Origin: Salinimicrobium gaetbulicola | GTDB taxonomy: Bacteria; Bacteroidota; Bacteroidia; Flavobacteriales; Flavobacteriaceae | Direction of reading: 5' to 3' | DNA length: 64,000 nucleotides | Assembly (NCBI RefSeq): GCF_042676025.1 | Contig: NZ_JBHTJP010000032.1 | Span: 873,709 to 937,708 of the forward strand | Shown: positions 27,130 to 54,725 of the stretch, one piece after another | Layout of the letters: every line of letters starts with the position of its first letter | How positions within the stretch are numbered: the first letter of the stretch is position 1 | The notes under the pieces: generated by a model | Told to the model about the DNA's origin: nothing | Databases searched by the model: none | Seen by the model: only the letters and a program-made list of their open reading frames with translations | Program-made: the position numbers and the translations under genes

Positions 27130-27527
27130 GGGGTCGACTTGGTTTTGACAGCGAGTCTAATTGAGTTGTAAGCACGTCGAGCGCTGGGAAATAGCTCGTA
27201 AATCTCATTTTTCACACTTTTTTAAACGGCGAGAATAACTACGCCTTGGCTGCATAATCCGAATCATAGTAGGATAGCTTAGTCCCTGCAAGGCAGGGAG
27301 CCAAGATGTCTCGTGGAAGCCTTGATTTACGGCGTCCGCACCAGAGGCACCGATAAAGTAAATATAGTAATCACAGGGCCTTGATGTGGTTGCGAAACTT
27401 AACCGAGGATACGTGTAAGATTGGTGGTTTTCGGCCGGTCTTGCATCGACAACCAAGCGAAAACTAAGCGTGAAGAAAGCATCTGAATTGCTTGTTTGGA
27501 CGAGGGTTCGAACCCCTCCGACTCCAC
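27130..27527 (+). ncRNA. ssrA: tmRNA (ssrA) with tag reading frame …GENNYALAA*
   Basis: 5' GGGGTCG pairs with 3' CGACTCC to give a 7-bp acceptor stem. A T-arm GGTTCGAACCCCTCC lies just upstream of the 3' end. The internal ORF gcg aga ata act acg cct tgg ctg cat aa encodes GENNYALAA-stop. CCA is not encoded. Confidence 0.9.
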
Positions 27528-27669: not shown

Positions 27670-27740
27670 AGGCGCAGCCAACCCCTCCGACTCCACAATA
27701 TAACCCGGTAAGCCTTGTGTTTACCGGGTTTTTTGTTTTA
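27670..27740 (+). repeat. repeat B: copy of the tmRNA 3' end (AACCCCTCCGACTCCAC, identical to 27511-27527) fused to a hairpin plus T-run terminator
   Basis: The exact 17-nt match to the ssrA 3' end lies ~150 nt downstream of the gene. It is followed by CCCGGTAAgccttgtgtTTACCGGG and a T-run. Confidence 0.7.
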
Positions 27741-28054
27741 AGATAACAATATGGATGACAAATAAAACCTGTCTTATTCCTCTTATTGAAACCTTAATTT
27801 CTTTAAAAACATTTTTCGTTTAAAAGCTGACTTCAATAATGACTTTATTTAATCTATCTCGAAATTTTCGTCATTTCGTTTAGAAAGATGAAAAGAACAT
27901 TGGTTAAAATTATTATAGAAAATTCTTTAAGAATTTCCCCTTCTCTCTTCCCGGACCTCTTTCTTAAAGTCCTCAAAACCACCTTTCCTCTTTAAAGTAC
28001 AAGCCTATCAGACTCTTGGGATTTTATAGATTAGGAGTGTAGGCAACATCTACT

Positions 28055-28810
28055 TTAAATCTGCGACTTAATTTTAGCGAACTCCTGTTCCAGAAACCGT
28101 AGTTTTTCTTCGAGTCCGTTTCCGGTTTCAGGGACACGATGATAGAATACATAACAAATATTCCAAAGTTCTTTAACCTCGTCCAGCCCTAAAGTAATAT
28201 CTTCTATAAGTTTGTGGTCTGCCCTTAGCACAAGGCTTGATTTCAAGATATATCCTCTTCGTAATACCAGTTGGTCCTCGGTTATAACCAATAATAGTTT
28301 TCCATTGTCCAGGTTTTTATATTCCTTTTTCGGCACAAATTGTCCAACCACCACATCCTTAGGAAATAACCCTTTTTCATGTGAACTCATCTCCAGAGAG
28401 TCTACCACAAAGCCTCGAAAGGATAAATCTCTGCTAATTGGCAACCTGAGGCAGGGTAGTCTACTTATAAATTCCTGGTTACCATACTCGGAAAGGTAGC
28501 TATTCCTGTTTGTAGGGACTATACAGGGAACGGAGGCGAACTGCTCTTTTAAAAGCTCGTCCTGATTTTCTGCAAAGTCGCCCTTAAACCTAAGCAACCG
28601 GTTTACCGTAAGCTCTTTCGTCAGCAATTCGTCGATGGAAATGCTAAAATGCTTAGCAATTTTTATCACGGTATCGATCTTTGGCTCACTCCTCCCCTCC
28701 TCATAAGCACCTAAGGTCCCGCGCTTTAAATCAAACATTTCCGCAAAGGCTTGCTGACTTAAAGATTTCACAGTGCGGATCTTCTTAATGTTTTTTCCAA
28801 AAAAAGACAT
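28055..28810 (-). CDS. phage-CI/LexA-like transcriptional repressor (HTH_XRE N-terminus plus S24 peptidase-like C-terminus)
   Basis: The N-terminal …IKKIRTVKSLSQQAFAEMFDLKRGTLGAYEEGRSEP…ISIDELL is a canonical XRE helix-turn-helix. The C-terminus carries VVDSLEMS, resembling the S24 GDSM catalytic-Ser motif, with basic residues downstream. Confidence 0.7.
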   Translation of the reverse strand: MSFFGKNIKKIRTVKSLSQQAFAEMFDLKRGTLGAYEEGRSEPKIDTVIKIAKHFSISIDELLTKELTVNRLLRFKGDFAENQDELLKEQFASVPCIVPTNRNSYLSEYGNQEFISRLPCLRLPISRDLSFRGFVVDSLEMSSHEKGLFPKDVVVGQFVPKKEYKNLDNGKLLLVITEDQLVLRRGYILKSSLVLRADHKLIEDITLGLDEVKELWNICYVFYHRVPETGNGLEEKLRFLEQEFAKIKSQI

Positions 28811-29111: not shown

Positions 29112-29507
29112 ATGAAAAACCACTTCAATATCACTAAAGATTTTTTACTGGAGCTAAATTTCCACATTAGTCGAGAGGATACGGAGAATAATGTTCTTGT
29201 GGTCCAAAAAGAAAACCACGGGATTAGAAACCTCATATTAGGGATTGCTCCTCCAATTTTAATCATGGAGCAGTATATTTTCAAGGTGAGCAACCAATCT
29301 GAAAAGGTTTTTAAAAACTTACTCCAAAAAAACAGGGATGTCATTCATGGAGCTTTTGTTTTGGATGATTCCGGTGAAAAAGTAATTTTCAGGGATACCC
29401 TTCAAATTGAAAACCTTGATATCAATGAACTCGAAGGCAGTCTTAATTCTTTAAGTCTCTTAATGAGTGAATTCTCAGACCGTATAATTGAATTTTCTAA
29501 ATACTAA
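29112..29507 (+). CDS. hypothetical cytoplasmic protein, YbjN-like (T3SS-chaperone-like fold) suspected
   Basis: 131 aa and acidic. Its alternation of hydrophobic beta-like segments and a C-terminal helix resembles YbjN-domain proteins, a weak call. It is the first gene of the operon and its end overlaps the pspA-like gene. Confidence 0.5.
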   Translation: MKNHFNITKDFLLELNFHISREDTENNVLVVQKENHGIRNLILGIAPPILIMEQYIFKVSNQSEKVFKNLLQKNRDVIHGAFVLDDSGEKVIFRDTLQIENLDINELEGSLNSLSLLMSEFSDRIIEFSKY

Positions 29508-29523
29508 CCTTAACCTTTACATC

Positions 29524-30240
29524 ATGAATATTTTTAAACGTTTATTTAAAATTGGGCAGGCAGAAACAAATTCTGCAATTGACAGCATGGAAGATCCTAT
29601 CAAGATGACCGAACAGGGCATCAGGGATATGAAAGAAGATCTGGACCGAAGCCTCGAGGCACTTGCACAGGTAAAAGCATTGGCAATAAGAGCCAAAAAT
29701 GACCAGGAAGAGTACCAGGAAAAGGCGGAAGAATACCAGAAAAAGGCCATTATTATTCTTAAAAAAGGTCATAGCAAAGAACTTGAACCTACCGAAGCAG
29801 ATGAGCTTGCAAAAGAAGCACTTGTTCAAAAAGAAACTGCAGAGAAACAGGCAGGTCGCAGTAAGGAGGAAGCCGCTAAGTTTGATGATAACGTGGCGCA
29901 ATTGCAAAAAACAATCCAGTCTATCAAGAGCAATATCAGCAACTGGGAAAATGAACTTAAAACCCTGAAGGCACGTGTAAAAGTTTCTAAGGCTACTACG
30001 AACCTTAACAAACAAATGGCTGAACTCGACAGTACTGGAACTGTTTCAATGCTTGAGCGAATGAAAGAAAAAGTAGCCCAGGAAGAAGCTCTTGCTGAAG
30101 CCTATAGCGATATTGCGAATGCATCAAAGTCTGTTGACGAAAAGATCGACAAGGCTGCAGATACTTCCAAAGCTAAAGCAGATGACGATCTAGCTAGATT
30201 GAAAGAACAATTAGGTCTTAACGCTAACAAAGATTCATAA
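29524..30240 (+). CDS. pspA: PspA/IM30 (phage-shock protein A / Vipp1, ESCRT-III-like) family protein
   Basis: N-terminal MNIFKRLFKIGQAETNSAIDSMEDPIKMTEQGIRDMKEDL matches the PspA amphipathic N-terminus and first helix (compare MGIFSRF…EDPEKMLEQ…IRDME). The remainder is a long coiled coil. Start set at the ATG at 29524. Confidence 0.85.
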   Translation: MNIFKRLFKIGQAETNSAIDSMEDPIKMTEQGIRDMKEDLDRSLEALAQVKALAIRAKNDQEEYQEKAEEYQKKAIIILKKGHSKELEPTEADELAKEALVQKETAEKQAGRSKEEAAKFDDNVAQLQKTIQSIKSNISNWENELKTLKARVKVSKATTNLNKQMAELDSTGTVSMLERMKEKVAQEEALAEAYSDIANASKSVDEKIDKAADTSKAKADDDLARLKEQLGLNANKDS

Positions 30241-30242: not shown

Positions 30243-30953
30243 TTGGGCAACCTTTATGACATTTTATTCTCTGAGGTCAACCTTATATTGACCGTTCTCC
30301 TCATTGTTCTCCTTCTTTACTGGATAGTTTCAATGATTGGCGGATTAGACTTCGACGTTGACTTTGATGTAGAGGTCGATCTTGATCCGGCGATTGACGC
30401 CGGCACCGCAATAGATGGAGGCAATATGGATTTCCAGGACCTCTCCAATGCGGAAGTGAACCAGGAAGATGTGGTGGGAAAAAGACGAAGACCACTTAAA
30501 TGGTGGCAGGTTTTTTTAATCTACTTCAATTTTGTTGGACTTCCCTTCATGTTCACCTTTACCTGTTGGATTTTTATTTGGTGGTTTATGACCGCATTGA
30601 CTACGGCAATGACCTTTTCCTATGACAATTATTTCGGCTTTGCGATTATGTTGATTGCCATGTTTCCGGCACTTATCGTCAACAAAATACTCACAACCCC
30701 TTTTAAAGGTTTCTTTAAAAATCTGAACAAAAACGGTGACACCCCTATAGATTATCTTGGCCGAAAAGGTCTTTTACTCTCTTCTATCTCAGGTGACAGG
30801 ATGGGTAATGCCGAAGTAAAAGTCGACGGCAACACCATGTCTATTTATGTAAAATCCCTTTCCGGAGATCCCCTACCCTACGGAAGCAATATTTTAATTA
30901 TTAAAAGGTCTCCGGACCAAAATTACTACCTAGTTGAAAATTATAACGAATAA
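30243..30953 (+). CDS. NfeD/YqiJ-like membrane protein (N-terminal TM helices plus C-terminal OB-fold), predicted partner of the flotillin
   Basis: Several TM helices, then a C-terminal soluble beta-rich domain (GRKGLLLSSISGDRMGNAEVKVDGNTMSIYVKS…ILIIKR). It sits immediately upstream of an SPFH protein, as in the yqiJ-yqiK and nfeD-floA pairs. TTG start 2 nt after the pspA stop. Confidence 0.6.
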   Translation: MGNLYDILFSEVNLILTVLLIVLLLYWIVSMIGGLDFDVDFDVEVDLDPAIDAGTAIDGGNMDFQDLSNAEVNQEDVVGKRRRPLKWWQVFLIYFNFVGLPFMFTFTCWIFIWWFMTALTTAMTFSYDNYFGFAIMLIAMFPALIVNKILTTPFKGFFKNLNKNGDTPIDYLGRKGLLLSSISGDRMGNAEVKVDGNTMSIYVKSLSGDPLPYGSNILIIKRSPDQNYYLVENYNE

Positions 30954-30964: not shown

Positions 30965-33037
30965 ATGGAATCAATTCTACAAATTATCGGACTTGGAATA
31001 GGCGTGCTGCTGTTCCTTATAGTAGTCTATTTCGCGATCATTGCGATGTTCTACAAAAAAGTTCCGCAGGGGCAGGCATTAATCAGAACAGGGTTTGGAG
31101 GCACCCAGGTCGCAACAGACAAAGGACTATATGTTGTTCCTGTTTTTCACAAAGTGGAGATCATGGATGTTTCTGTCAAAAAAATTCAGATCGAGCGATT
31201 GGCTCACGAAGGGCTTATCTGTAAAGACAATATGAGAGCAGACATCAAAGTTGCTTTTTTTGTAAGAGTAAATAACGATGTGGAATATATTAAAAAAGTG
31301 GCCCAAACCATTGGAGTAGCCCGTGCATCTAGGATCGAAACCCTGGAAGATCTGTTTGAGGCAAAATTTTCCGAAGCTTTAAAAACAGTCGGTAAAAAAT
31401 TTGAATTTATTGAACTATATGAAGCCCGCCGGGAATTTCGCGATGAAATCGTTGACATTATAGGGACTGATCTTAATGGATATACCCTCGAAGACTGCGC
31501 AATTGATTATTTGGAGCAAACTTCAATAAAAGAGCTAAAGCCGGACAATATCCTTGATGCAGAAGGTATCAAAAAGATCACTGAATTAACCGCGGTTCAA
31601 AGTGTTAAAGCAAATCTTATCAAAAGGGACGAAGAAAAAACCATCAGGAAGCAGGATGTAGAGGCAAGAGAAGCCATTCTTGAACTGGATAAGCAGTTAG
31701 CTGAAAAAGAAGAGCAGCAAAAACGTGAGATCGCAAATATCAAGTCTCGTGAAGAAGCTGAAACACTGAAAGTAGCTGAAGAGGAGCGGTTAAAATCTGA
31801 AACTGCTCGCATTATCACTCTGGAAAAAGTAAAGGTTGCCGAAGAAAACATGGAGCGCCAGGTTATTGTTGCCCTTAAAAACAAACAACGCACCGATGCT
31901 GTCGAAACAGAACGTGTGGAAAAAGATCGTTTACTCGAAGCTACCGAGCGGGAAAGAGTAGTGACCCTTGCACAGATCGAGAAAGAAAAAGTGGTGGAAG
32001 TTGAGAAGAAAAACATCCAAGATATTATCCGCGATAGGGTCGCCCTGGAAAAAGGCGTGGTCGAAGAGCAGGAAAACATGAAAGATATCCAGGCTTTTAA
32101 AACTGCAGACCGTGACAAACAGGTAAAAATCACTCTTGCTGAGGCCAATGCTGAGGAAGATCTTATTAAAACCATTAAAGCTGCTGAAGCACAAAAAGAA
32201 GCCGCAAAACAAAAAGCTGAAGAGATCAATATCGAGGCCCTTGCTCATAAAGAAGCTAGTGAGAAAGAAGCTGAGGCTCGCAAGATCCTTGCTGAAGCAC
32301 AGGCCAAAGAAGAAGCTACTGTTGGAATGTCTGAAGCACAAGTAATGCATGCAAAAGCAGATGCAAATGAGCGTCAGGGACTGGTAGAAGCCAATATTAT
32401 TGAGAAAAAAGCCAAAGCAGAAGCGGCCGGTATTGAGGCCAAAGCCGAGGCGAAGCGTAAAGACGGACTTGCAGAAGCTGCGGTAATAAAAGAAAAGGCA
32501 TTATCTGATGCTGCCGGGATCGAAGAGAAAGCAAATGCTATGAAGAAACTGGATGGCGTAGGTAAAGACCATGAAGAATTTAAACTGCGCCTGGACAAGG
32601 ACCTGAAGGTAGACCTTGCACACATCAATGTTCACAGGGATATTGCAGACGCCCAGGCAAAAGTACTTGGAGATGCATTAAAAGCTGCTAAAATCGATAT
32701 TGTAGGTGGTGAAACAATGTTCTTTGAACAGATCGTTGGACAGATTGCCAGAGGAAAAGGAATTGACCGACTTGTAGAGAACAGCAGCAACATACGCGAA
32801 GTCAAAGAAGCTGTTCTGGGTGATGAACAGGCCAATGGAAACCTACTGGACAAGATCAAGACCTTTACAGAAAAATACGGTATATCTGCAGAAGACATCA
32901 AGAACCTCACTGTTGCCAACCTGTTACTCGATCTAAAGAGAAAATCTGATGATTCAGGAGAGCAGTCTACCCTCAGTAATTTGCTGAATATGGCTAATGA
33001 ACTGGGCATCGCAAACAAACCAATCAACAAACTCTAG
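30965..33037 (+). CDS. flotillin-family SPFH/band-7 protein (YqiK/FloT-like)
   Basis: N-terminal TM helix, an SPFH domain (…VPQGQALIRTGFGG…YVVPVFHKVEIMDVS…), then a ~350-aa E/A/K-rich coiled coil typical of flotillins. Confidence 0.85.
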   Translation: MESILQIIGLGIGVLLFLIVVYFAIIAMFYKKVPQGQALIRTGFGGTQVATDKGLYVVPVFHKVEIMDVSVKKIQIERLAHEGLICKDNMRADIKVAFFVRVNNDVEYIKKVAQTIGVARASRIETLEDLFEAKFSEALKTVGKKFEFIELYEARREFRDEIVDIIGTDLNGYTLEDCAIDYLEQTSIKELKPDNILDAEGIKKITELTAVQSVKANLIKRDEEKTIRKQDVEAREAILELDKQLAEKEEQQKREIANIKSREEAETLKVAEEERLKSETARIITLEKVKVAEENMERQVIVALKNKQRTDAVETERVEKDRLLEATERERVVTLAQIEKEKVVEVEKKNIQDIIRDRVALEKGVVEEQENMKDIQAFKTADRDKQVKITLAEANAEEDLIKTIKAAEAQKEAAKQKAEEINIEALAHKEASEKEAEARKILAEAQAKEEATVGMSEAQVMHAKADANERQGLVEANIIEKKAKAEAAGIEAKAEAKRKDGLAEAAVIKEKALSDAAGIEEKANAMKKLDGVGKDHEEFKLRLDKDLKVDLAHINVHRDIADAQAKVLGDALKAAKIDIVGGETMFFEQIVGQIARGKGIDRLVENSSNIREVKEAVLGDEQANGNLLDKIKTFTEKYGISAEDIKNLTVANLLLDLKRKSDDSGEQSTLSNLLNMANELGIANKPINKL

Positions 33038-33044: not shown

Positions 33045-33080
33045 AAGCGCCCTGGTAATTCTTAACAGGGCGCTGTTTTT
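33045..33080 (+). terminator. rho-independent terminator after the flotillin gene
   Basis: GCGCCCTGgtaattcttaaCAGGGCGC hairpin followed by TGTTTTT. Confidence 0.6.
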
Positions 33081-33244: not shown

Positions 33245-36200
33245 TTGGAAATGGCAGTACAGGAACAAAAAAATAAATCATCACAGACTCTGGACGGCGG
33301 TACTTATGAAGTGATCCAGGGCAGGTTACAGAAACAGAAAAAGGATTTACAGGATCGGCTGCAAAAACTCGATACAGATCGTAAAAAGGTTTTTGGTTCC
33401 CTGGAAACCAAATTGATTTCCAATGACAGGATCAATACAGAAAACCGCTGCATAGCCCGGGATATTGTGTCGTTCGGTGACACCTGTCTATTTGGGTACA
33501 ATGTTCATTTTGGACTGCGTACAGAGATTAATATATCTGATGTTTTCAGTGTCTATGAGTTTAAAAATAATAAACTAGAACCCAAGACCCTAGAGATATT
33601 AGAGAACGAACTTTTTCAGTCAGATTTCACCAACCTTTATAAATATTACCGTCATACCATTTTTTCGAAGTTCGCCATCATTGGAAATTACCTGTATATG
33701 GTCTTTAGGTTGAGCGAAAGTGTAACCGATATTAAAACCTTTAAATGGCTTATTAAAGAAGAGTCTCTGGAGTACGTGGACAATCGCAGTGATCACGAGT
33801 ATAAATTCCAGGCACAGCACGAATTTAAATGGCGGGAAGTAACAAGAGATATGCACCGCTACGGTGTTCATTCCCACGTCTCGATTCTCGATCGAGTATT
33901 TGTAGAAACCATCGGTGGGGACCTTACTATTAAAATAGAAGATAATACCGAAGACGGTAAAGGCATTCTCACTGAGCCTGTTGAACATCGTGATCAGACA
34001 TTAGATGATGGAAATTATAGATTTGGCCAAATAGGAAATTTGATTCCGTTAGAGATAAAACCTTTTCAAGAACCGGCACGTTATTTTGTTTATAATCATA
34101 AGCTTCGTGAAGTAAAGAAGATCGAGAGCATAAAAGAAAGCTGCATTCTTCTTCCGGACGACCAGGGGATCATTTTTCCTAATGGTTATTACTTGCAAAC
34201 CGGCGAATACAAAATTTTCACGAACAGCATTGATGATGTAAAATTCGAGCAGAAGATAGCGTCACCCAACGGTGAAGACTTTTTGTACGTCTTCTACTCT
34301 CCCCAGAAAGGTTTGTACAACCTAATGTCCTACAATATCATTAGCCGCGAAATTCAGACCCCAATCATCTGTAACGGATTCACCCTGCTCAAAAATGGAG
34401 AACTATGCTATTTCAGGAGTGAAGAGGAACAAACCCGGCACCATGTGATCCAGATTTGGCAAACGCCTTTTCTGAAGGGGGACTTTATGCCTTCACAACA
34501 CGAGGACACTTTGCTCTATAAGATCGGAAATAAGGAAATTGTACAGGCAATGGCCGAAGCAAACAGCCTTATCAACCTGCTGAACAAGGAGGACAACTAT
34601 GACGGACTCTACAATGACATTGCCCGGGTTTCCAAAGACATTCTCGATTCCTATTACTGGTTGCCCGAAGCAGAATCCCAACAGCTAAATGAGCCTCTTT
34701 CTGAAATTAACAAGGCAGCCAATGCTGCAATGGATGAATTCGAGAAAGTGGTGCAGCTTAAGAAGAATGCAACGAAGCAGACTAATGAAATACAGGAAAA
34801 AGCGGAAGCCCTTTTCACAAAGATCAAGAGCTCTTCCTTTAATTCAATTAATGACTTTGTCGCATTCCTAACTGAACTTCGAAAACTGCGCGGGGAAGCA
34901 CTTTCCCTGAAGGAAGTGCGCTACGTCAATGAAGAGTTCATCAAAAAATTAGAGGAGGAAATAGCAACTCATACTACAAAACTTTCTGAGCGCTGTGTAA
35001 AATTCCTGCTCGATGAAAAGGCCTTACAGCCATATCATGACAAAGTTGGGGAAAAACAGGCGGCTTTAGAAAAGGTTACCAAGGTTGTGGATGTTCGTAA
35101 ATTGGAAGAAGAGGTGAACCAGATCGCTGCAGACCTGGAATTGCTAATAGATATAATTACGAATCTGGATATTGAAGACACCTCCCACTCTACCACGATC
35201 ATCGATAACATCTCGCTGATCTTTTCGACAATAAATCAGCTGAAAGCTGCGCTAAAGAACAAAAAGAATGCCTTGGGTAGTGCAGAGGCACGTGCCGATT
35301 TTGCCGCACAATTAAAACTAATTGATCAAAGTATCATCAATTACCTAGACATGGCAGGCACTCCCGAAAAATGTGATGAATTCCAGACGAAGATCTCCAT
35401 TCAACTGGAAGAGTTGGAGGGAAAATTTACCGACTTCGAAGAGTTCATAGGGAGCATTATTGAAAAACGGGAAGAAGTCCACGCTGCTTTTGAGTCCAAA
35501 AAGAATGCGCTTGTCGAAAAACGGAACAAAAAAGCCCTTGCTCTTCACAATGCCTCTGAAAGGATCCTGAAGGGTGCCCGTTCAAAGGTGCAAAGTTTTC
35601 GTACCGCCGCAGAGATCCAGGGCTATTTCGCTTCAGATCTTATGATCAACAAAGTTCGGGACATCATTCAGCAACTAAAGGATCTCGATGATTCAGGAAA
35701 AGCTGAAGAGATCGAGACCAGCCTTAAGTCGGCACGTGAGAACGCACTCCGGCAATTAAAGGATAAGCTCGACCTATATGAAGATGGTGACAACATAATA
35801 AGATTGGGAAAACATAAATTCGGGGTAAACAAGCAGCCACTTGACCTCAGTATTGTTTTCAAAAGCGGAACCCCTTACTGTCATTTAACAGGAACCGATT
35901 TTTACCAGGAACTCAGCGATTCAACTCTTCTCAATTCCAAAGATCTCTGGGACCAGGAATTTGTTTCTGAAAATTCAAAAGTCTATCGTTCCTCATACCT
36001 TGCCTATAAGCTGTTCAAAAAACTGCCTCATGAGCAATTGCTCCATGCCGGAGAGGAAGAATTACTAAGGATCGTACAGCAGGAAAGTAGCAGCGATTAT
36101 TCAGAAGGTTACCTTAAAGGAGTTCACGATGTAGATGCAAGTAAAATCCTAAAGGTGCTTGTGCATAAACATCACGCAATGGGTTTATTACGATTTCCTC

Positions 36201-38173
36201 CCAAAATACGTGCCTACGCCCAGTACTTCTGGAACAGCCTTCCTGAAAAAATAAAAGATGATCTTGACCGAGGATTAAAAGCTTCAGGCGAGGTACTGAG
36301 TATTTTTCCGGACACCCAAGAATATGACTTTGTCATTAGAGACCTGAGCGACCATGCTAGAAAATTTGCTACGGAAACAGCACTTTTTGATCCTGCTCTG
36401 AGTGAAGAAATAGCAGCTTATATTTTTGAAGAATTGCAGGGCGATGACGAATTTGAACGCAGCCATGTCGCCCTTACCATAAAAGGAGATTTCTGGAAAG
36501 CCTTGAAAAAGGAGCAGGTAGATCTAAGGTTTAAAAACAGCTTGGAATCGGTGACTAATTATGTAGACAGAATTCGCCTGGTAAAGCAATGGATCTCGGC
36601 TTTCGTGAACAGCAAAGCTAAAGCTGAAAAGACTTCTGAAACGATTGAAGCCACTAATTACATTGATGAAGTTGTTTGCCGAATTTTATCTGAGGATGAA
36701 TCAGTTTCCAAAACCAAAACGGTGACCCCCGCGGAGACCATAGAAGGTCTTACCGGCGATCATCCTACTTTCAAAAAAGGCATCTTTCATTTTCAATATC
36801 ATAACTTTATTTCTCAACTGGAGCAGTTTGTAAGAGAAGATATTCCCACGTATAACACCTACCGGAAAACCAAACATGCGCTCACAAAGCAACTGAAAGA
36901 GGAACTAAAACTGGAAGAATTCAAACCAAGAGTACTGACTTCTTTTGTCCGGAATAAATTGATAGACCAAGTTTACTTTCCGCTGTTTGGAGACAACCTG
37001 GCAAAACAGCTGGGAACCGTTGGAGATAAAACCAGGACAGACCGAAGCGGAATGCTTCTACTCGTATCCCCACCGGGATACGGTAAAACCACGTTAATGG
37101 AATACATTGCCGATCGTCTGGGGCTCGTTTTTATGCGCATCAACGGACCTGCAATCGGGCATGATATCACTTCAATAGATCCGGCTTCGGCTACCAATTC
37201 AGGTGCCAGGGAGGAGTTGAAGAAGCTAAATCTGGCGTTTGAAATGGGCAACAATGTGATGTTGTATCTGGATGATATACAGCATTGTAATCCAGAATTC
37301 CTCCAGAAATTCATTTCCCTTTCTGACGGAACCAGAAAAATTGAAGGGATATTTAACGGAAGATCCAAAACCTATGATTTGCGTGGAAAGAAATTCTGCG
37401 TGATCATGGCAGGGAACCCATACACCGAAACCGGGGATAAATTCAGAATACCTGATATGCTGGCGAACAGGGCAGATATCTACAACCTGGGAGACATCAT
37501 TGGTGATACAGAGCACCTGTTCAAACTCAGTTTGATCGAAAACTCCCTCACTTCTAATCCTCTTTTGCAGCAGCTTAGCAGCTCCAACTTTGAGGATGTA
37601 TATACGCTTTTGGATCGTGTGGAAAATAACAACCAGGAGACGCAACTAATAGGCAATCACAGCTCACAAGATGTTCAGGAATACACTTCAATACTAAAAA
37701 AGGTGGTTAGCCTTCGCGATACAGTACTAAAAGTAAATGCTGCTTATATCAAAAGTGCAGCTATGGAAGATGAATACAGAATAGAACCTGCATTTAAGTT
37801 GCAGGGCTCCTATAGAGATATGAACAAACTTGTGGCGAAAGTAGTGCCGATCATGGACGAGAAAGAGCTACAGCGATTGGTTCTTTCCCATTATGAAAGT
37901 GAATCACAAACCCTCACCTCCTCTGCCGAAGCAAACCTGCTAAAGTTCAAAGAACTGGTAAATGCATTGAATCCTGAAGAACAGGAACGTTGGACCAAGA
38001 TTTGCGAAACATTTTTAAAAAACAATAAACTGAAAGCTTTTGGAGACAAAAATGAAATGGCACAGGTACTATCCCAGATGATGCTGTTCTCTGAAAACCT
38101 TGAAGGTATCAAGAAAGTTCTGGAGCGGGGAATTGAAAACGGACTTGAACGCCCCGAATTGCCGCAGTTATAA
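33245..38173 (+). CDS. giant (1642 aa) multidomain protein with a single AAA+ ATPase domain (MoxR/dynein-like AAA_5-type) near the C-terminus
   Basis: Walker A LLLVSPPGYGKTTLMEY (~aa 1275), Walker B-like VMLYLDDIQH, and a downstream sensor/Arg region (MAGNPYTETGDKFRIPDMLANRADIY). The N-terminal ~470 aa is a globular region of unknown function. aa ~470-1250 is helical/coiled-coil rich. Confidence 0.8.
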   Translation: MEMAVQEQKNKSSQTLDGGTYEVIQGRLQKQKKDLQDRLQKLDTDRKKVFGSLETKLISNDRINTENRCIARDIVSFGDTCLFGYNVHFGLRTEINISDVFSVYEFKNNKLEPKTLEILENELFQSDFTNLYKYYRHTIFSKFAIIGNYLYMVFRLSESVTDIKTFKWLIKEESLEYVDNRSDHEYKFQAQHEFKWREVTRDMHRYGVHSHVSILDRVFVETIGGDLTIKIEDNTEDGKGILTEPVEHRDQTLDDGNYRFGQIGNLIPLEIKPFQEPARYFVYNHKLREVKKIESIKESCILLPDDQGIIFPNGYYLQTGEYKIFTNSIDDVKFEQKIASPNGEDFLYVFYSPQKGLYNLMSYNIISREIQTPIICNGFTLLKNGELCYFRSEEEQTRHHVIQIWQTPFLKGDFMPSQHEDTLLYKIGNKEIVQAMAEANSLINLLNKEDNYDGLYNDIARVSKDILDSYYWLPEAESQQLNEPLSEINKAANAAMDEFEKVVQLKKNATKQTNEIQEKAEALFTKIKSSSFNSINDFVAFLTELRKLRGEALSLKEVRYVNEEFIKKLEEEIATHTTKLSERCVKFLLDEKALQPYHDKVGEKQAALEKVTKVVDVRKLEEEVNQIAADLELLIDIITNLDIEDTSHSTTIIDNISLIFSTINQLKAALKNKKNALGSAEARADFAAQLKLIDQSIINYLDMAGTPEKCDEFQTKISIQLEELEGKFTDFEEFIGSIIEKREEVHAAFESKKNALVEKRNKKALALHNASERILKGARSKVQSFRTAAEIQGYFASDLMINKVRDIIQQLKDLDDSGKAEEIETSLKSARENALRQLKDKLDLYEDGDNIIRLGKHKFGVNKQPLDLSIVFKSGTPYCHLTGTDFYQELSDSTLLNSKDLWDQEFVSENSKVYRSSYLAYKLFKKLPHEQLLHAGEEELLRIVQQESSSDYSEGYLKGVHDVDASKILKVLVHKHHAMGLLRFPPKIRAYAQYFWNSLPEKIKDDLDRGLKASGEVLSIFPDTQEYDFVIRDLSDHARKFATETALFDPALSEEIAAYIFEELQGDDEFERSHVALTIKGDFWKALKKEQVDLRFKNSLESVTNYVDRIRLVKQWISAFVNSKAKAEKTSETIEATNYIDEVVCRILSEDESVSKTKTVTPAETIEGLTGDHPTFKKGIFHFQYHNFISQLEQFVREDIPTYNTYRKTKHALTKQLKEELKLEEFKPRVLTSFVRNKLIDQVYFPLFGDNLAKQLGTVGDKTRTDRSGMLLLVSPPGYGKTTLMEYIADRLGLVFMRINGPAIGHDITSIDPASATNSGAREELKKLNLAFEMGNNVMLYLDDIQHCNPEFLQKFISLSDGTRKIEGIFNGRSKTYDLRGKKFCVIMAGNPYTETGDKFRIPDMLANRADIYNLGDIIGDTEHLFKLSLIENSLTSNPLLQQLSSSNFEDVYTLLDRVENNNQETQLIGNHSSQDVQEYTSILKKVVSLRDTVLKVNAAYIKSAAMEDEYRIEPAFKLQGSYRDMNKLVAKVVPIMDEKELQRLVLSHYESESQTLTSSAEANLLKFKELVNALNPEEQERWTKICETFLKNNKLKAFGDKNEMAQVLSQMMLFSENLEGIKKVLERGIENGLERPELPQL

Positions 38174-38190: not shown

Positions 38191-38247
38191 CCTCCAACTC
38201 CACAATATAACCCGGTAAGCCTTTTTTTACTGGGTTTTTTTGTTTTT
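38191..38247 (+). repeat. repeat C: second copy of the ssrA 3'-end fragment plus terminator (CCTCCAACTCCACAATATAACCCGGTAAGCC…TACTGGGTTTTTTTGTTTTT)
   Basis: ~57 nt, about 88% identical by eye to repeat B (27685-27740). It also acts as a rho-independent terminator for the giant gene. Confidence 0.7.
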
Positions 38248-38476
38248 AGGTGACAAAAATATTTGACTATTTCCTGAGAACTAGCTTAGAGCTTTTGAAC
38301 CTACAGAGCCACATTTCATTATAAACTATTCTGAGTGTTAATTTTTTAATTATAGATCACTGACAATCAATAACGAAGAAAATCCTCAGTAAAAAACAAC
38401 TATTTTTCCTTTGATTATTATTTAGATTGATTCTACATTTGCCATTGTTTTTAATTAATCTAAATAAGAATCATTA

Positions 38477-44411: not shown

Positions 44412-45101
44412 CTAGAACGTACTATTTAATCGAACAGTAAATTCCTTAGGACCTGCCAATTCCTCCCCATCTACCTTGAATTTAGGATTATATTTTCCCG
44501 TAGGAAGATCTTGGAAGGTATAAGTGTTACATGCTTTGGCAACGTCAACATATTTAGTCGCAGCCGTATTAACGGCAGATAAAGCCAAATTAGCCACTAA
44601 ACCTAACACCCCAGGAGCACCAGTATTGACGGAAGTATCATAGACAACCTCACCTTTTCTATTATACAAGGTCTCATTAGTCTTGGTCGATTTTATAATA
44701 TATTCCACTTCGACCTTTACGTTTGATCCAATTGCTGACTTATCCCACTTGTTGATAATGGTAAAAACAGCAAGATCAGCACCAAAGATTTCTCCAAAAG
44801 TACTCAATGGTGAATCTAAAAACAATTCAGCATCATAGGCACTTTCCTTCTTTAAGATCTCCATTGAAAGGAACGGAGGAATTACATAATATCCGGCATT
44901 TGCCAGGGGAACATTTAATGTGGTGTGGAAATATTCCTTGGCTTCCACATTAGTAGTTCTGTTAATGGGGGGCATCAATAAGACAGTAAGAGGCTCTTGC
45001 TCATACATTTGTTGATAAGCAACCGATTTTGCAACTTTGGGTGTACTACAACTGGAAAGTGTAAATACAATTAAACTAAATACAAACAGTGCTCTTTTCA
45101 T
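44412..45101 (-). CDS. DUF799 (GNA1162-like) lipoprotein
   Basis: Lipobox LSSCS. ~230 aa. It is the last gene of a four-lipoprotein operon with CsgG-like and DUF4810-like partners. Confidence 0.6.
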   Translation of the reverse strand: MKRALFVFSLIVFTLSSCSTPKVAKSVAYQQMYEQEPLTVLLMPPINRTTNVEAKEYFHTTLNVPLANAGYYVIPPFLSMEILKKESAYDAELFLDSPLSTFGEIFGADLAVFTIINKWDKSAIGSNVKVEVEYIIKSTKTNETLYNRKGEVVYDTSVNTGAPGVLGLVANLALSAVNTAATKYVDVAKACNTYTFQDLPTGKYNPKFKVDGEELAGPKEFTVRLNSTF

Positions 45102-45442
45102 AACTCAGTTAGTTTTAAGATTCTTTCAATAAAAATTTTAGATTCAGGATATAGCTCTATTTCTTTTGCCAGCATATCTTTTCCCTGGGCTACTTCTCCT
45201 TTTTGCAGTAGAATAAAACCATAATCGGCGTAGATTCCCGGGGGCACGGCCTTCCTTGTTCCGGTTTGTTCTGAAATTATTTTTTTGTAATTCTCAAGAA
45301 GGGTCGTTAATGATTCTTCATCACTTTTTTTAATATAGTTGTAACTGGCGTCCTCGTATTTTTCCCAGGAATAAAGTTGTTTTGGGGCAGTGCAGGATAC
45401 GGCCAGAATTGCTACAGTAAGTATTAAGATTATTTTTTTCAT
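45098..45442 (-). CDS. DUF4810-like small lipoprotein
   Basis: Lipobox AVSCT. YSWEKYEDASYNY near the N-terminus and a PPG…YGFLL…LYPES pattern. Overlaps both neighbours by 4 nt. Confidence 0.55.
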   Translation of the reverse strand: MKKIILILTVAILAVSCTAPKQLYSWEKYEDASYNYIKKSDEESLTTLLENYKKIISEQTGTRKAVPPGIYADYGFILLQKGEVAQGKDMLAKEIELYPESKIFIERILKLTEL

Positions 45443-45765
45443 GGTAGTATTATTTTTTTAGTCTCTTGGGCAGATACAAAAATTCTTTTTTGATAGATGA
45501 TCTCGTTATTATGAGCAACAGAGACCAGATGCTGGCCCGTTGAAATAGCATAAACTTTTCCCTTTGGTCTGTCAGCATGGTTTTTTTGCACCTCTGCAGA
45601 AAAAGAGGTTTTGCCATCAATGCTTACCTCTACACCCGAGTCGTAATTTTCGGGGTTTCCCAAAAAAACCAGAAATGCTTCATTTTCTAGACCTGAAGTG
45701 GTTGTTTTTACACCAGTGCATCCTACTGATAGGAGCACAATAAATAGAAGGATCAATTTTCTCAT
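45439..45765 (-). CDS. small lipoprotein, hypothetical
   Basis: Lipobox SVGCT, 108 aa. Translationally coupled to both neighbours by 4-nt overlaps. Confidence 0.5.
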   Translation of the reverse strand: MRKLILLFIVLLSVGCTGVKTTTSGLENEAFLVFLGNPENYDSGVEVSIDGKTSFSAEVQKNHADRPKGKVYAISTGQHLVSVAHNNEIIYQKRIFVSAQETKKIILP

Positions 45766-46694
45766 ATCTTAATTTCTTTAATGTAATACATATCAAGATT
45801 ACTACTATCAATCGTTCCCTCAACAAATGAAACCATTGAGAATTCAGATTGCGGATTATCACCTCCCATATGAGTTACTTTAACCTTTCCAACTGCTTTT
45901 CCCGGCAATTCCATCATCATCCCTGTTTGTGGATTTTTGACACTTTTACCTTTTTCAACGACCTCAAAAATGTCATTTACTTTAATTCCTTGACTGGCAC
46001 CTCCCGATATCAAAATTCCGTCTTGGTCATAAGTCAGGAAATAAGATTTCCAGGGTCTGTCCATACAATTGTTGATAATATTTTCTACGAGTTTAGAAAT
46101 GGCTACTGAAATTGCCTTGTCGCTTAAAGTGGCATCATAATCAGTACGTTCTCCCATTCCCATTACGGTTTTGTTGGTAGTTTCGGCCTCTCCCTTAGCC
46201 TCTTCAGAATAAATGATCTGGCCTGTGGAAACATCTACTAATCGTATGCTCACTCCAGCCTGTACGGTCTGTGTTTTACTTCGGGAGAAAACATTGACAT
46301 CACCAACATTTTTACGACCAAATTCAGTGACCGACCCAATAATCAGATAATCAGCCCCTAACTTTTGCCCCTGATTTTCAGAAAGCTTGTATTCCTCCAT
46401 TATTTTATCCATCTCCTGGCGTTCCAGAAGTATAAATTTATTTGTGGAAGCTAGTTTTGTTGTTAAAATGTCCAGTGCCTGATTGGTAATTGGATCATTT
46501 TCTTTTTCGTAGAAGATTCCTTTCGCATACTGGGTTTCATTTGAAAACCGGGCAATAGCTACTTTTCGCTTCAACCCCTGCGCCTCGGGTTGTTTTAATT
46601 CCTTGACCTGCGGTTCTACCTGGACAACATTTTGCTGCACAGTGCAGCTCATGAGGGTGCAACCAAGCGCAAGGCCCATTAGAGTTTTTCTCAT
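45762..46694 (-). CDS. CsgG-family (curli secretion channel-like / LpoB-like) lipoprotein
   Basis: Lipobox LMSCT. KRKVAIARFSNETQYAKG, LASTNKFILLERQEMDKIMEE and GADYLIIGSVTEFG blocks are typical of CsgG-family proteins. Confidence 0.7.
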   Translation of the reverse strand: MRKTLMGLALGCTLMSCTVQQNVVQVEPQVKELKQPEAQGLKRKVAIARFSNETQYAKGIFYEKENDPITNQALDILTTKLASTNKFILLERQEMDKIMEEYKLSENQGQKLGADYLIIGSVTEFGRKNVGDVNVFSRSKTQTVQAGVSIRLVDVSTGQIIYSEEAKGEAETTNKTVMGMGERTDYDATLSDKAISVAISKLVENIINNCMDRPWKSYFLTYDQDGILISGGASQGIKVNDIFEVVEKGKSVKNPQTGMMMELPGKAVGKVKVTHMGGDNPQSEFSMVSFVEGTIDSSNLDMYYIKEIKI

Positions 46695-49139: not shown

Positions 49140-52100
49140 CTATACCGTCACCTTTGATCTTCGGTATTTCCTATCACGGAAAAATGCCAGAATGGCGATT
49201 GCCGTAAGAATTGCTATTAGCACATAGATGAATGATGGAATGGGCAGCGGGTCACCGGCTGCATAGCTATGTAGGCCTGATAAATAATAGTTCACTCCAA
49301 AAGAGGTCATTATAATAGATCCGAAAGCGAAGACACTTACCGCGTTCAATACAAACCTGCCTCGCAGAGCCGGAATAAACCGAAGGTGCAGCACCACTGT
49401 ATAGACAATAATACTTATGAGCGCCCAGGTTTCCTTGGGATCCCATGCCCAGTAACGCCCCCAGGATTCATTGGCCCAGATACCGCCAAGAAAAGTTCCT
49501 ACCGCCAGTACGAATAAACCAATGGTCATTGCGATCTCATTGATATAAGTGATCTCTTTAATCTTCACATTGATCTTTTTCTGAGAACCGGGTGTTCTGA
49601 AAATTATTAGAAGTAAGGCCATTAGTCCCAAAATAGCAGAAAGCGCCAGAGGAGCATAACTGCTTACGATAGTAGCGACATGCACTTTCAGCCAGAAAGA
49701 TGATTTTAGCACAGGCATCAAATTAGTGATCTCAGGGTTCAACCAGTCCAGGTAACTCACAAATAAAAGAGCCCCGGTAAATAAAGTAGCAAGAGGCAAT
49801 GCGAAATCAGATTTTCTAAAGGTGAGCAAACCACATAGCAAGAGCGTCCATGCCACAAAGACCAGCATTTCATAACCATTGCTCCATGGGGCGTGTTGAG
49901 CTACGTACCAGCGCAATATGATATTTCCGGTGAAAGCCAGGAAGCTTATCAAAGTGATAAGGATCAAAGCGTTCCACACGATCTCAATACCTTTATTATT
50001 CGTAAAGATCTTGACAATAGCAAGCAGTAACAAGATCGCCCCAATAGTAAAGTACAACTGGAACAACCAAAAATTAAGATTCAGTTCATTGTACCAGATC
50101 TCGGCCTCAACTCTCTTACTGTCAGGAATTATCTCCTCTCCCAGAACATCCTGAAATTTCTTGATATACGTTAATTTTTCGCTGGCTGCTGCCCAGTCTT
50201 TATTTTTGACATCATTAAAATACCCCGGAATTATCCCCTTTGCAAAACGGGCATCTTCTGCCGGAAAATCATTAAAATCATGAGTGGGGCTGTACCATTT
50301 GTTAGTACTGTCATTACTGTTAGGGAATATTTTCAAATAATGCCCCGCAAAAACATTGTAGAGAATATTGAAGCGTTCGTCGACCTTGATCACTTCCTTA
50401 TCTAATTCATTACGTTCTGCAGGCTTTTTCTGATTGGCATCTTCAATAGCTTTGACCAGCAAATAATTTCCTTTATCATCTAGAAGTTGCGCAAACGACA
50501 CCAGGTCATCCTCACTAAGTTCAAGGGCAGAAAAAGCGCCTTTGGCCTTATCCCGGTCTATTTTTATCAACGGAATATATTGCCACACATTGGGAGAAGC
50601 ATGCATCGCCAGAAAGGCCTGGTTGGCACTTAAGGTTGTTTTTTCGCCTTCCTTAGTGAATTTAAAATATGGCTTTCTGGTTAGCTTCCGAAGAAATTCT
50701 GAAGCCAGGGTGTTGACAGGTTTTATTCTTCCATCAAGATCCTGAACCATAAGCCTTCCGAACATCTCTGCATGCTGTTCGTTCACCGTTTGCTCTTCAA
50801 TAATATCTATCGTGATCTCAGGATCAGGTTCCTGTGCATTCATTCCGGCAGAAAAGCCAAAAAGCAGAAGTAACAAACTTATCGTTTTCATTTTCTTGAG
50901 TTTCTTATTGATCTGTGTGAACCTCGAAGCTCTTCCGAAGAGCGTAAAGAACATTCCTATCATCATTAGAAAATAACCCGCGTAGGTAACATAAGTTCCC
51001 GGAGCATCATGATTCACAGCCAGCACTGTTCCCATCTCATCGGTGTCATAACTGGCTTGAAAGAATCTGTACCCTTCATAATCCAGGACATTGTTCATAT
51101 AAATGCGATGGGGCATGGCCTTACCATTATCCATCACCTTAACTTCACTCGCATAAGAGGAAGGGCTTGTTGAACCGGGATAGCGCTCCAGCTGAAAATC
51201 ATCAAGATGAATGGCAAAAGGTGTGGTTAAAGCCTTTGAACCGTAGGACAAAATCACTTTTGTGCCTGCCAACTCAACCTCATGTTGGGATGGCAAAAAG
51301 CCTTGCCTGTACAATAAGGTCACCTTTTCTTCCTGATCACCAACTTTGACGTTCACCACAAGGGCATCATCCTTGATCTCATCATTATCTTTTGGTTTTT
51401 CAGATTCGCTCACCAATTTAATGGACGCATTAGGATGGTAAGATAACGGAACAAAGGACGCATCTCCATCTCTATACAAAGTTCGAAGGGACATGGGATG
51501 TAAACTGTCCTTTAACAGTGTTCCGGCTTTTTCTGAAGCCATCACAAAAGTTCCCAGATTCCGCGGAGACCTTATCTTAAAGCTGCCGTCCTCCTCTGTA
51601 ATATTGATCACCCCTTCCCCTTCAGCTTCAAAGCCTATTTTGTGATTATGAGTACCTATGTTCTCGATCTCTCCTTTCTCAAGAAAAACGGTCTGGCGTT
51701 GACTACCTGCCGAAACCACCATTTGAAGCATTGGCTTTCCTCCTTCGATGCCGTCAACAATTTCGGGAACCGCATCTGCCACAAACTCATTATAACTCAC
51801 GGTTACCGGCTGACCGTTGAATTCGGTGTCAATGGTAAAATCATTATCCCCGATAGGAGAAAAATTCATTCTCTTTTCAAGGGTCTTTGAACCATTCTTA
51901 TCACTCAATGTGAACTTTAAAAAATTGGCATCTGAAATTATCGTGTTAGAAGCTGCTCCTTCCCGTATGCGCATGATCCCACCATAAGAAGTGTACCGGG
52001 TAATTCCTGCGCCAATGAGGATCACGATAAAAGCCAGGTGAAATAAAAGGATCGCCCATTTCTCTTTTCTCCAGAGGTTGTATTTAAAAATATTGGCCGC

Positions 52101-52283
52101 AAAACTAATTCCCAGGCCTAGCATAATGAGTTCAAACCATAAGGAATCATAGATCAACTGCCAGGCAGTTGCTGTACCAAAATCATTTTCAACAAAGGTG
52201 GCGACCGCCATAGCTACCGCATACGCGAACAATAATAGTACTGCCAAAACAGGCGATGCGAAAACTTTATATAACTTTTTCAT
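49140..52283 (-). CDS. ccsBA: fused cytochrome c biogenesis protein CcsB(ResB)-CcsA (system II, CcsBA)
   Basis: 1047 aa. The N-terminal ResB-like half has TM helices and a large periplasmic domain. The C-terminal half contains the CcsA WWD heme-handling motif (WGRYWAWDPKETWAL) and conserved His residues. Confidence 0.85.
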   Translation of the reverse strand: MKKLYKVFASPVLAVLLLFAYAVAMAVATFVENDFGTATAWQLIYDSLWFELIMLGLGISFAANIFKYNLWRKEKWAILLFHLAFIVILIGAGITRYTSYGGIMRIREGAASNTIISDANFLKFTLSDKNGSKTLEKRMNFSPIGDNDFTIDTEFNGQPVTVSYNEFVADAVPEIVDGIEGGKPMLQMVVSAGSQRQTVFLEKGEIENIGTHNHKIGFEAEGEGVINITEEDGSFKIRSPRNLGTFVMASEKAGTLLKDSLHPMSLRTLYRDGDASFVPLSYHPNASIKLVSESEKPKDNDEIKDDALVVNVKVGDQEEKVTLLYRQGFLPSQHEVELAGTKVILSYGSKALTTPFAIHLDDFQLERYPGSTSPSSYASEVKVMDNGKAMPHRIYMNNVLDYEGYRFFQASYDTDEMGTVLAVNHDAPGTYVTYAGYFLMMIGMFFTLFGRASRFTQINKKLKKMKTISLLLLLFGFSAGMNAQEPDPEITIDIIEEQTVNEQHAEMFGRLMVQDLDGRIKPVNTLASEFLRKLTRKPYFKFTKEGEKTTLSANQAFLAMHASPNVWQYIPLIKIDRDKAKGAFSALELSEDDLVSFAQLLDDKGNYLLVKAIEDANQKKPAERNELDKEVIKVDERFNILYNVFAGHYLKIFPNSNDSTNKWYSPTHDFNDFPAEDARFAKGIIPGYFNDVKNKDWAAASEKLTYIKKFQDVLGEEIIPDSKRVEAEIWYNELNLNFWLFQLYFTIGAILLLLAIVKIFTNNKGIEIVWNALILITLISFLAFTGNIILRWYVAQHAPWSNGYEMLVFVAWTLLLCGLLTFRKSDFALPLATLFTGALLFVSYLDWLNPEITNLMPVLKSSFWLKVHVATIVSSYAPLALSAILGLMALLLIIFRTPGSQKKINVKIKEITYINEIAMTIGLFVLAVGTFLGGIWANESWGRYWAWDPKETWALISIIVYTVVLHLRFIPALRGRFVLNAVSVFAFGSIIMTSFGVNYYLSGLHSYAAGDPLPIPSFIYVLIAILTAIAILAFFRDRKYRRSKVTV

Positions 52284-52360
52284 TGCAATTTATTTTCTCC
52301 ATAAAATATAGAGACACCTAATTTTCACAAAAGGTGCCTCTATATAATATCAATATTTGA

Positions 52361-54467: not shown

Positions 54468-54725
54468 ATTGGAAGGTCTGCTGGTTAGTTTACTCTAATG
54501 TCAATGTTATAGAATATGGGATTTTTATCAAATAGATTCTTCCAATTTTAAAAAGGGAACCTATTTGATTGGCTCTTAATCCGGCTATATCATTTTCATT
54601 ACAAAAATATTCCGACCATTTTACCCGATTTATGACAATGATCAGTATTTGAAAAATAAAATTAAGAAAATTTTAATACTTCGGAAATTTAATAACTCAG
54701 TTATTCTTCTTTTTGGAAAGGACAA

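Follow-up and report, generated by a model that had tools for sequence, protein, structure and literature searches.

The 64,000-nucleotide stretch of Salinimicrobium gaetbulicola DNA that we analysed (the window; contig NZ_JBHTJP010000032.1, positions 873,709 to 937,708) encodes a giant protein with a single AAA+ ATPase module. Our data place this protein in the Pfam DUF3686/DUF7902/AAA family. Its AAA+ module resembles those of the MoxR and dynein classes, its Walker B motif carries an invariant Asp-Asp pair, and its gene is nearly inseparable from genes for a flotillin and an NfeD-like membrane protein. We give an even chance to the reading that the giant protein is an ATP-driven remodeller of flotillin and PspA scaffolds. 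The locus is a further member of a catalogued family and operon: the family is present in databases, and the operon and the propeller architecture have been described in silico (PMC11237479). What is new here is the MoxR/dynein-class assignment, the invariant Asp-Asp pair with its catalytic set, the middle domain with a GVHDxD motif, the quantified NfeD-flotillin-ATPase core, the hairpin that separates the ATPase gene from that of flotillin, and the island-like flanks of the module.

The gene and the parts of its product are as follows:

33245..38173, forward strand: giant ORF (open reading frame) for the DUF3686-DUF7902-AAA+ protein, supported by Pfam and by more than 5000 homologues
33344..34657, forward strand: DUF3686 domain (residues 34-471); a helix at residues 18-50 is followed by about seven four-stranded beta blades
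34571..35776, forward strand: helical-bundle stalk of the model (residues 443-844), which holds DUF7902 (residues 592-675, nucleotides 35018-35269)
35795..36688, forward strand: conserved middle region, with a small beta domain (residues 851-889) and a helical domain (residues 915-1148)
37055..37483, forward strand: five-stranded alpha/beta core of the AAA+ module (residues 1271-1413), from Pfam and the model
37067..37093, forward strand: Walker A, SPPGYGKTT (residues 1275-1283), read from the sequence
37256..37285, forward strand: Walker B, VMLYLDDIQH (residues 1338-1347), read from the sequence
37511..38137, forward strand: lid and extra C-terminal helices of the model (residues 1423-1631), bearing the invariant QGSYR motif

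The ORF, the longest of its region, was first noticed by a reading of the letters alone (the original prediction); it exists where that reading put it, translates as described and contains the quoted motifs. Counted from the listed TTG start the protein has 1642 residues, and counted from the ATG at 33251 it has 1640. Because a database protein 99% identical to it is 1640 residues long, the true start is probably this ATG, two codons past the listed TTG. More than 5000 homologues were found at E<=1e-5, the nearest named ones coming from Salinimicrobium (78-83% identity), and relatives within the Flavobacteriaceae share 66-99% identity. Antisense ORFs of at least 60 residues had been counted as six, and our recount with ATG, GTG and TTG starts gives ten; they are irrelevant, since conservation of the sense ORF extends to thousands of genomes. 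In four relatives the ATPase ORF appears as two adjacent or overlapping ORFs (L003 9974-14895, L011 9929-14850, L055 9959-14824 and L075 9953-14967), and in L011 the flotillin ORF (7747-9818) is likewise split; either sequencing errors produced frameshifts there or the ORFs are pseudogenes.

Membership in the family follows from the order of the Pfam domains, with both DUFs above their gathering scores and one AAA domain behind them. DUF3686 (PF12458) matches residues 34-471 at E 8e-177 and 588.6 bits (cut-off 25), and DUF7902 (PF25472), present in all 17 members scanned, matches residues 592-675 with 88.1 bits (cut-off 26). A single P-loop/AAA region covers residues 1271-1394, where AAA reaches 33.1 bits (cut-off 21.2) and AAA_5 is also above its cut-off; the model likewise contains one alpha/beta P-loop fold, as had been expected from the only P-loop visible by eye. 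A search with residues 1150-1642 against 1.8 billion cluster representatives returned 351 clusters (50% identity) at E<=1e-30, and 72 full-length representatives of 1500-2036 residues align with the query from end to end, down to 28% identity. The four-part architecture is therefore a property of the family. The NCBIfam search of the giant protein gave no match above cut-off, and single-sequence and profile searches of all chains in the PDB produced P-loop-level matches only (Cdc48, Rix7, RuvB) and no solved relative. No nuclease, protease or TIR domain was found in it by Pfam, NCBIfam or PADLOC, which is the same outcome as that of the inspection by eye.

The structure was predicted in two AlphaFold parts. 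The N-terminal model (residues 1-480, 24 sequences) has a predicted local distance difference score (pLDDT) of 87.8 and a predicted template-modelling score (pTM) of 0.87; the C-terminal model (residues 443-1642, 17 sequences) has a pLDDT of 83.8 and a pTM of 0.57, which makes its domain packing unreliable. In the N-terminal model a 33-residue helix leads into about seven four-stranded beta blades and then into two helices. DUF3686 is thus predicted to be a divergent beta-propeller without a close solved relative, in agreement with the propeller repeats already reported (PMC11237479), and the N-terminal 470 residues can no longer be called unknown. The helical or coiled-coil middle of about 780 residues proposed from the sequence has to be redrawn as well: the model contains about 400 residues of helical bundles followed by a conserved globular region. 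Within that region the helical domain matched no family or fold, yet it holds the motif G959-x-H961-D962-x-D964 (GVHDxD; nucleotides 36119-36136). H961 and D964 are kept in all 73 aligned full-length sequences (the query and its 72 relatives), and R915 and R989 of the same domain are invariant too. The motif may bind a metal or a partner. Residues 1155-1256 form a short beta element followed by two long helices, and the anticipated C-terminal helical domain corresponds to the lid and helices at residues 1423-1631.

The nucleotide site combines an intact set of AAA+ residues with an unusual Walker B. Both motifs lie where the original prediction had placed them. Walker A retains GK[ST], with K1281 invariant among the 73 sequences, and nearly all members have Ser in place of the first Gly of GxxxxGK[ST] (S1275 in 73/73). 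The hhhhDE pattern with its catalytic Glu is absent: the acidic pair is retained with Glu replaced by Asp, hhhhDD being found in 142 of 142 scorable representatives and DE never, and D1343 and D1344 are each kept in 73/73. The Asp-Asp pair is therefore genuine and no alignment artefact. Around it, the alpha/beta core and helical lid carry sensor-1, Arg finger and sensor-2 as expected of AAA+ proteins. N1391 (AGNP, at the end of beta4) is sensor-1; R1409, at the end of alpha4 just ahead of beta5, is the Arg-finger candidate; and R1524 (QGSYR), at the N-terminus of a lid helix, is the sensor-2 candidate. All three are invariant (73/73), as are H1347 of DDIQH and R1364, and the two arginines occupy canonical positions in the model. 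Conservation of the Asp-Asp pair and of the Arg finger in homologues had been proposed as a check, and the pair and the Arg-finger candidate both proved invariant. A characterised family with a canonical Asp-Glu, once properly aligned, would have spoken against the original prediction; the family turned out to be named but uncharacterised, and its Asp-Asp is real.

Does this module hydrolyse ATP or merely bind it? A structural tether or switch that binds nucleotide without hydrolysing it, as the original prediction allowed, would fit the replacement of the catalytic Glu by Asp in every member and the Ser in place of the first Walker A Gly. However, sensor-1 Asn, Arg finger and sensor-2 Arg, together with K1281, are invariant, and because the residues for hydrolysis and inter-subunit sensing are kept down to 28% identity, a loss of hydrolysis is less likely than regulated hydrolysis. 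Furthermore, DnaA of Escherichia coli hydrolyses ATP with the Walker B LLIDDIQFF, hhhhDD is typical of the STAND switch NTPases, and these precedents are slowly hydrolysing, regulated switches. Asp-235 of DnaA has been named as a Walker B residue (PMC4661922). The invariance points to a conserved active site, at which hydrolysis is most likely slow, regulated or partner-triggered, not abolished; we regard the non-hydrolysing tether as quite unlikely. An invariant Asp-Asp Walker B is unusual for a ring-type AAA+ protein and could reveal how hydrolysis is gated, and the motif map offers K1281, D1343/D1344, N1391, R1409, R1524 and GVHDxD as targets for mutation.

The structural comparison with solved proteins scored CbbQ highest (17.0, 238 of 267 residues aligned), followed by NorQ (15.7), dynein (14.9), midasin (14.3), ClpA/ClpB (about 13) and McrB (11.7), with Cdc48/NVL (about 11-12) and Vps4 (about 11) at the lower end; Foldseek yields the same AAA+ families. 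The likeness to the MoxR proteins CbbQ, NorQ and RavA extends to the AAA_5 match, the pre-sensor-1 beta-hairpin (strands at residues 1365-1370 and 1373-1378 between alpha3 and beta4 of the model), the AGNP sensor-1 and the Arg finger before beta5, and presumably to a remodelling or chaperone role. However, MoxR proteins are about 250-500 residues long, carry DE in Walker B and act together with a separate VWA-domain partner, while the giant protein has 1640 residues, an invariant DD and a beta-propeller, helical stalk and middle domain of its own. No VWA/MIDAS domain was found by Pfam in it or in its five operon partners. As to the H2 insert, the monomer model shows a confident 14-residue loop (residues ~1305-1318, between beta2 and alpha2), and no H2-insert hairpin is evident in it. 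The label MoxR/dynein-like therefore holds as a resemblance, by structures, Foldseek and AAA_5, whereas an assignment to MoxR proper fails on the DD Walker B, the absent VWA partner, and the size and architecture.

The dynein/midasin side of the resemblance (Rea1/Mdn1) consists of a Foldseek E of 1.4e-7, with alignments over the helical region and the AAA+ module, and of a large helical region ahead of the ATPase that recalls a linker. Dynein and midasin, in contrast, have six AAA+ modules per chain, and the giant protein has one and lacks a microtubule-binding or MIDAS domain. A true dynein homologue was rejected on template-modelling scores of about 0.13-0.15, the lack of a shared global fold and the single AAA module. 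The classical AAA clade (Vps4, Cdc48, FtsH) does not fit either: the pre-sensor-1 hairpin and R1524 are present, the loop after beta2 (residues ~1305-1321, GHDITSIDPASATNSGA) contains no aromatic residue and no aromatic pore-loop-1 motif, and sequence matches to Cdc48 are restricted to the P-loop. Membership among the STAND NTPases was also discarded; the DD is there, but nSTAND3 (E 0.87) and NPHP3_N (E 0.062) match the P-loop only, and the best structures are ring AAA+ proteins.

Two further likenesses are functional. An AAA+ protein that is encoded together with the ESCRT-III member PspA, and whose predicted target is a membrane-bound polymer, is analogous to Vps4 with ESCRT-III in archaea and eukaryotes; unlike Vps4 the giant protein has no MIT domain, and its core linkage is to flotillin and NfeD, not to PspA. 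The coupling of an SPFH scaffold and NfeD, genomic or physical, to an AAA+ machine recalls the HflK/C-FtsH and SPFH-NfeD cages. FtsH, however, is a membrane-anchored AAA protease of the classical clade, and the giant protein has neither a transmembrane segment nor a protease domain.

The genes around the ATPase carry the argument from the module to its likely partners. Those of the operon and its transcription signals are:

28055..28810, reverse strand: divergent XRE/CI-like helix-turn-helix (HTH) regulator, 251 residues, Pfam HTH_3
29112..29507, forward strand: CesT/Tir-like chaperone (CesT_Tir_1), Pfam E 6.5e-56
29488..30240, forward strand: PspA/IM30 homologue (bacterial ESCRT-III), Pfam E 8e-46
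30243..30953, forward strand: NfeD/YqiJ/YuaF-like membrane protein, 236 residues, with transmembrane segments and a C-terminal beta domain seen in the sequence; no Pfam match
30965..33037, forward strand: flotillin (Pfam Band_7), 690 residues, the conserved upstream partner (64/65 loci)
33046..33074, forward strand: GC-rich hairpin with U-run directly after the flotillin stop, dG -18.9 kcal/mol, z -3.8
38209..38236, forward strand: intrinsic terminator of the giant gene, inside a 66-nucleotide repeat (its right copy)

The position of the gene directly after a flotillin scaffold, on which the original prediction had relied, is confirmed by the Band_7 gene upstream. The coupling itself was examined in the best 80 of at least 562 loci from species-representative genomes, a sample biased toward Bacteroidota in which ORFs were searched with the proteins of the window. 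Of the 65 loci with enough upstream sequence, 64 have flotillin upstream on the same strand and 61 have NfeD, which supports a functional coupling. PspA (41/61), CesT (38/61) and HTH (39/61) are less constant among loci with enough upstream sequence, the HTH gene being conserved together with the CesT-PspA pair in 39/61. Among the phyla of these loci are Bacteroidota, Planctomycetota and Verrucomicrobiota, and the linkage of the ATPase to flotillin and NfeD covers six phyla in all. Even two members at 28-30% identity, on contigs of 70-75% GC, keep the NfeD-flotillin-ATPase order with a 17-bp gap or a 4-bp overlap, and the triad is present on a Deinococcus megaplasmid. On the Pseudomonas fluorescens megaplasmid pQBR103 (NC_009444.1 84437-97641) the ATPase and an SPFH protein stand at the end of a long array of YjfI, PspA, rhomboid, DUF2491, DUF350, DUF1190 and glutathionylspermidine synthase genes. 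YjfI belongs to a CesT-like family distinct from CesT_Tir_1, and the ATPase module has here merged with a polyamine-type PspA operon. The core is thus NfeD-flotillin-ATPase, and PspA modules have been recruited to it repeatedly, via two different CesT-like partners.

The operon of CesT/Tir, PspA, Band-7/flotillin, AAA+ and YqiJ/YuaF genes, with beta-propeller repeats, has been described in silico, and participation in ATP-dependent membrane dynamics or remodelling was proposed there (Ravi et al., 2024, PMC11237479); its PspA-Band7-NfeD-HTH part was noted by Popp et al. (2022). Our locus is an instance of the operon of Ravi et al. without an essential difference, as the five components and the ATPase (coiled coil, beta-propeller, AAA+) are all present, and the 236-residue NfeD-like protein fits their YqiJ/YuaF component with three transmembrane segments. 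Two details of the smaller genes may be added. The listed TTG start of the PspA ORF overlaps the end of the CesT gene, and PspA proteins of relatives have 238 residues, so translation probably begins some 12 codons farther on. The C-terminal part of the HTH protein, about 170 residues without a Pfam match, is beta-rich and looks CI/LexA-like by eye.

This neighbourhood bears on the name of the family. Pfam labels DUF3686 an 'ATPase involved in DNA repair', NCBI calls the relatives 'DNA repair ATPase', and weak RuvB_N matches (E 5e-4, below the Pfam cut-off, P-loop only) point the same way. Against a true DNA-repair ATPase, the protein has no DNA-binding, nuclease or helicase domain in Pfam or NCBIfam, the best structural matches do not include RuvB, and the neighbours are entirely membrane-related in six phyla. 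Our literature searches also gave no paper that backs the name, ties a DUF3686 protein to DNA repair or connects a 'DNA repair ATPase' with flotillin. We find such a function very improbable; the name is unsupported, yet it is spreading to thousands of genomes.

The same neighbourhood, together with the structural matches, bears on a MoxR-type assembly chaperone, which would insert a cofactor into, or mature, a membrane client corralled in a flotillin microdomain without remodelling any scaffold. Its nearest solved structures, CbbQ and NorQ, mature or activate Rubisco and NO reductase, and SPFH cages are known to enclose clients such as FtsH. However, the neighbourhood contains neither a VWA/MIDAS partner nor a conserved client gene: only NfeD and flotillin are universal, and the downstream genes differ in every genome examined. 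We therefore consider this explanation rather unlikely.

Transcription may differ between the ATPase and its scaffold. When 30 Flavobacteriaceae relatives were folded, most had, at the place of the hairpin at 33046-33074 or close to it, a strong hairpin whose sequence is unrelated. The hairpin at 33046-33074 is likely a terminator or attenuator that keeps expression of the ATPase lower than that of flotillin, and the recurrence suggests a conserved attenuation between the two genes, with the ATPase below scaffold stoichiometry. The Rfam scan of 27.5-38.7 kb detected the tmRNA end only and no riboswitch or leader in intergenic regions; the sigma-70 promoter scan performed no better than on shuffled sequence, Bacteroidota promoters being outside its coverage.

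Taken as a remodeller, the giant protein would be the ATPase subunit of a three-part membrane machine formed with the NfeD-like protein and the long flotillin as SPFH scaffold, which in this genome may be extended by the CesT-like chaperone, PspA and the CI-like HTH regulator. By analogy with CbbQ and NorQ, the AAA+ domains would assemble as a ring, probably a hexamer, from which six propeller-tipped helical arms would touch the cytoplasmic face of the flotillin/NfeD cage, PspA polymers or both. The propeller, stalk and middle domain with its GVHDxD motif would stand in for the separate VWA adaptor of MoxR systems. ATP turnover would then assemble, disassemble or reshape the flotillin/PspA scaffolds under envelope stress, a job analogous to that of Vps4 on ESCRT-III and of FtsH inside HflK/C cages, while the intergenic hairpin would keep the ATPase sub-stoichiometric to the scaffold. 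A link between the two scaffolds themselves has a parallel in Bacillus subtilis, where an SPFH protein is reported to recruit PspA to the membrane.

Several points weigh against this remodeller. MoxR relatives usually depend on a VWA partner, and none is found in this operon. Without an aromatic pore-loop-1, threading of a polypeptide is not assured. PspA is missing in about one third of the loci, thus a role directed at PspA cannot be the core function, and as a hairpin or terminator parts the ATPase from the flotillin gene in many genomes, co-transcription is putative. Both models are monomers on shallow alignments (24 and 17 sequences), with an uncertain domain arrangement, and we infer the oligomeric state, the ATPase activity and the contacts with flotillin and PspA. 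Literature searches on DUF3686/PF12458 retrieved no paper and no experiment on any family member; those for experimental work on AAA+ proteins linked to flotillin or PspA retrieved in-silico studies only.

The remodeller reading nevertheless addresses a gap. PspA/Vipp1 are homologous to ESCRT-III, flotillins build large membrane cages, and no ATPase that turns over such polymers is known from bacteria, in contrast to archaea and eukaryotes; according to a 2025 review, bacteria seem to lack a Vps4-like ATPase (PMC7619361). Because it is nearly inseparable from flotillin/NfeD and repeatedly joined to PspA, the DUF3686-AAA+ family is the strongest genomic candidate for an ATP-driven remodeller of bacterial flotillin/ESCRT-III scaffolds, and the MoxR/dynein-class assignment gives it a mechanistic frame.

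The flanks of the module suggest that it moves as a unit:

27130-27527: tmRNA gene
27684..27749, forward strand: left copy of the 66-nucleotide direct repeat, with tmRNA 3' end and terminator
38191..38256, forward strand: right copy of the repeat, which supplies the terminator of the ATPase gene

The repeat comprises the last ~13 nucleotides of the tmRNA and a terminator hairpin; a second copy of the tmRNA 3' end stands at 27680-27699. Its copies are 83% identical without gaps and 92% identical over 51 nucleotides. They are the only two within the 64 kb, are spaced 10,507 bp apart and enclose exactly six genes, from HTH to ATPase. No recombinase gene was found between the repeats or in the 19 kb downstream, and the repeats look like the signature, by att site or long target duplication, of an island that lacks an integrase. 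The six genes also lie between direct repeats in at least five other genomes; these repeats, of differing local sequence (30-70 nucleotides), are tRNA-Leu or tRNA-Met 3' ends and/or a terminator hairpin:

L004, Tamlana, 4626-4655/14867-14896: 30 nucleotides, 100% identical, overlapping the tRNA-Leu 3' end
L011, Cyclobacterium, 4793-4862/15230-15299: 70 nucleotides, 100% identical
L050, metagenome-assembled genome of Flavobacteriales, 4307-4336/15303-15332: 30 nucleotides, 100% identical
L001, Salinimicrobium sediminis, 4698-4733/14982-15017: 36 nucleotides, 94% identical, holding a reverse-complemented tRNA-Leu 3' end
L003, Gillisia, ~4823-4870/~14920-14955: diverged terminator copy beside tRNA-Met

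A repeat in L042 was discarded as a bracket, being a multicopy REP-like element, and matches of 15-17 nucleotides in L007, L052 and L073 were put down to chance. Of the relatives with long contigs, the two closest carry the module in other genome contexts. In L083 (18533-20119) it sits in a tRNA-Asp island with a tyrosine integrase on one side and AbiEii and an M48 peptidase on the other; in L085 (15514-23912) it stands beside a 1931-residue DUF4011/AAA_11/AAA_12 helicase, an ion channel and an integrase. The six-gene module thus looks like transferable cargo, and local duplications of 30-70 nucleotides without a recombinase in the module could reflect decayed att sites or mobilisation in trans.

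One would argue that such a setting is that of a threat-sensing conflict or anti-phage module, in which the propeller senses an invader or membrane damage, the DD NTPase acts as a switch, and flotillin/PspA serve as the effector, by membrane sealing or by controlled membrane collapse as abortive infection. The direct repeats beside the tmRNA gene, the relatives' islands with tyrosine integrase and tRNA-Asp, AbiEii or the DUF4011 helicase, and the presence on megaplasmids agree with it, as does the STAND-like hhhhDD; in the literature, MoxR proteins and propeller sensors recur in conflict systems. However, PADLOC (PADLOC-DB v2) returned for the six proteins P-loop-level matches only (IetA and mad8, E>0.003) and coiled-coil noise, Pfam found no toxin, nuclease or protease effector domain, and a tblastn search of a phage collection gave no match, so that there are no phage copies. 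In addition, the STAND profile reaches only the E of 0.87 given above, and a sequence conserved at 66-99% within the Flavobacteriaceae is not diversifying like the usual arms-race sensors. The conflict module remains doubtful in our judgement. As a minor possibility of similar weight, the six genes could be a self-contained mobile 'membrane-rescue' cassette that enters tRNA, tmRNA or terminator sites without its own recombinase and leaves the 30-70-nucleotide local duplications. The giant ATPase would in that case be the bacterial counterpart of Vps4, a MoxR/dynein-class ring with six propeller-tipped arms whose slow, partner-gated hydrolysis (DD Walker B) disassembles or reshapes flotillin cages and PspA/ESCRT-III polymers, an activity that might protect cells against membrane damage by phages or toxins.

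Of the downstream genes, those for a TonB receptor and PepSY_TM were excluded as parts of the module, as they are not conserved with it. Farther on, the stretches 44412-46694 and 49140-57027 hold seemingly unrelated housekeeping genes: a cluster of CsgG/GNA1162/DUF4810 lipoprotein genes, an S9 peptidase, a catalase-peroxidase and a cytochrome c nitrite reductase set (NrfH-like, NrfA-like and ResB/Ccs).

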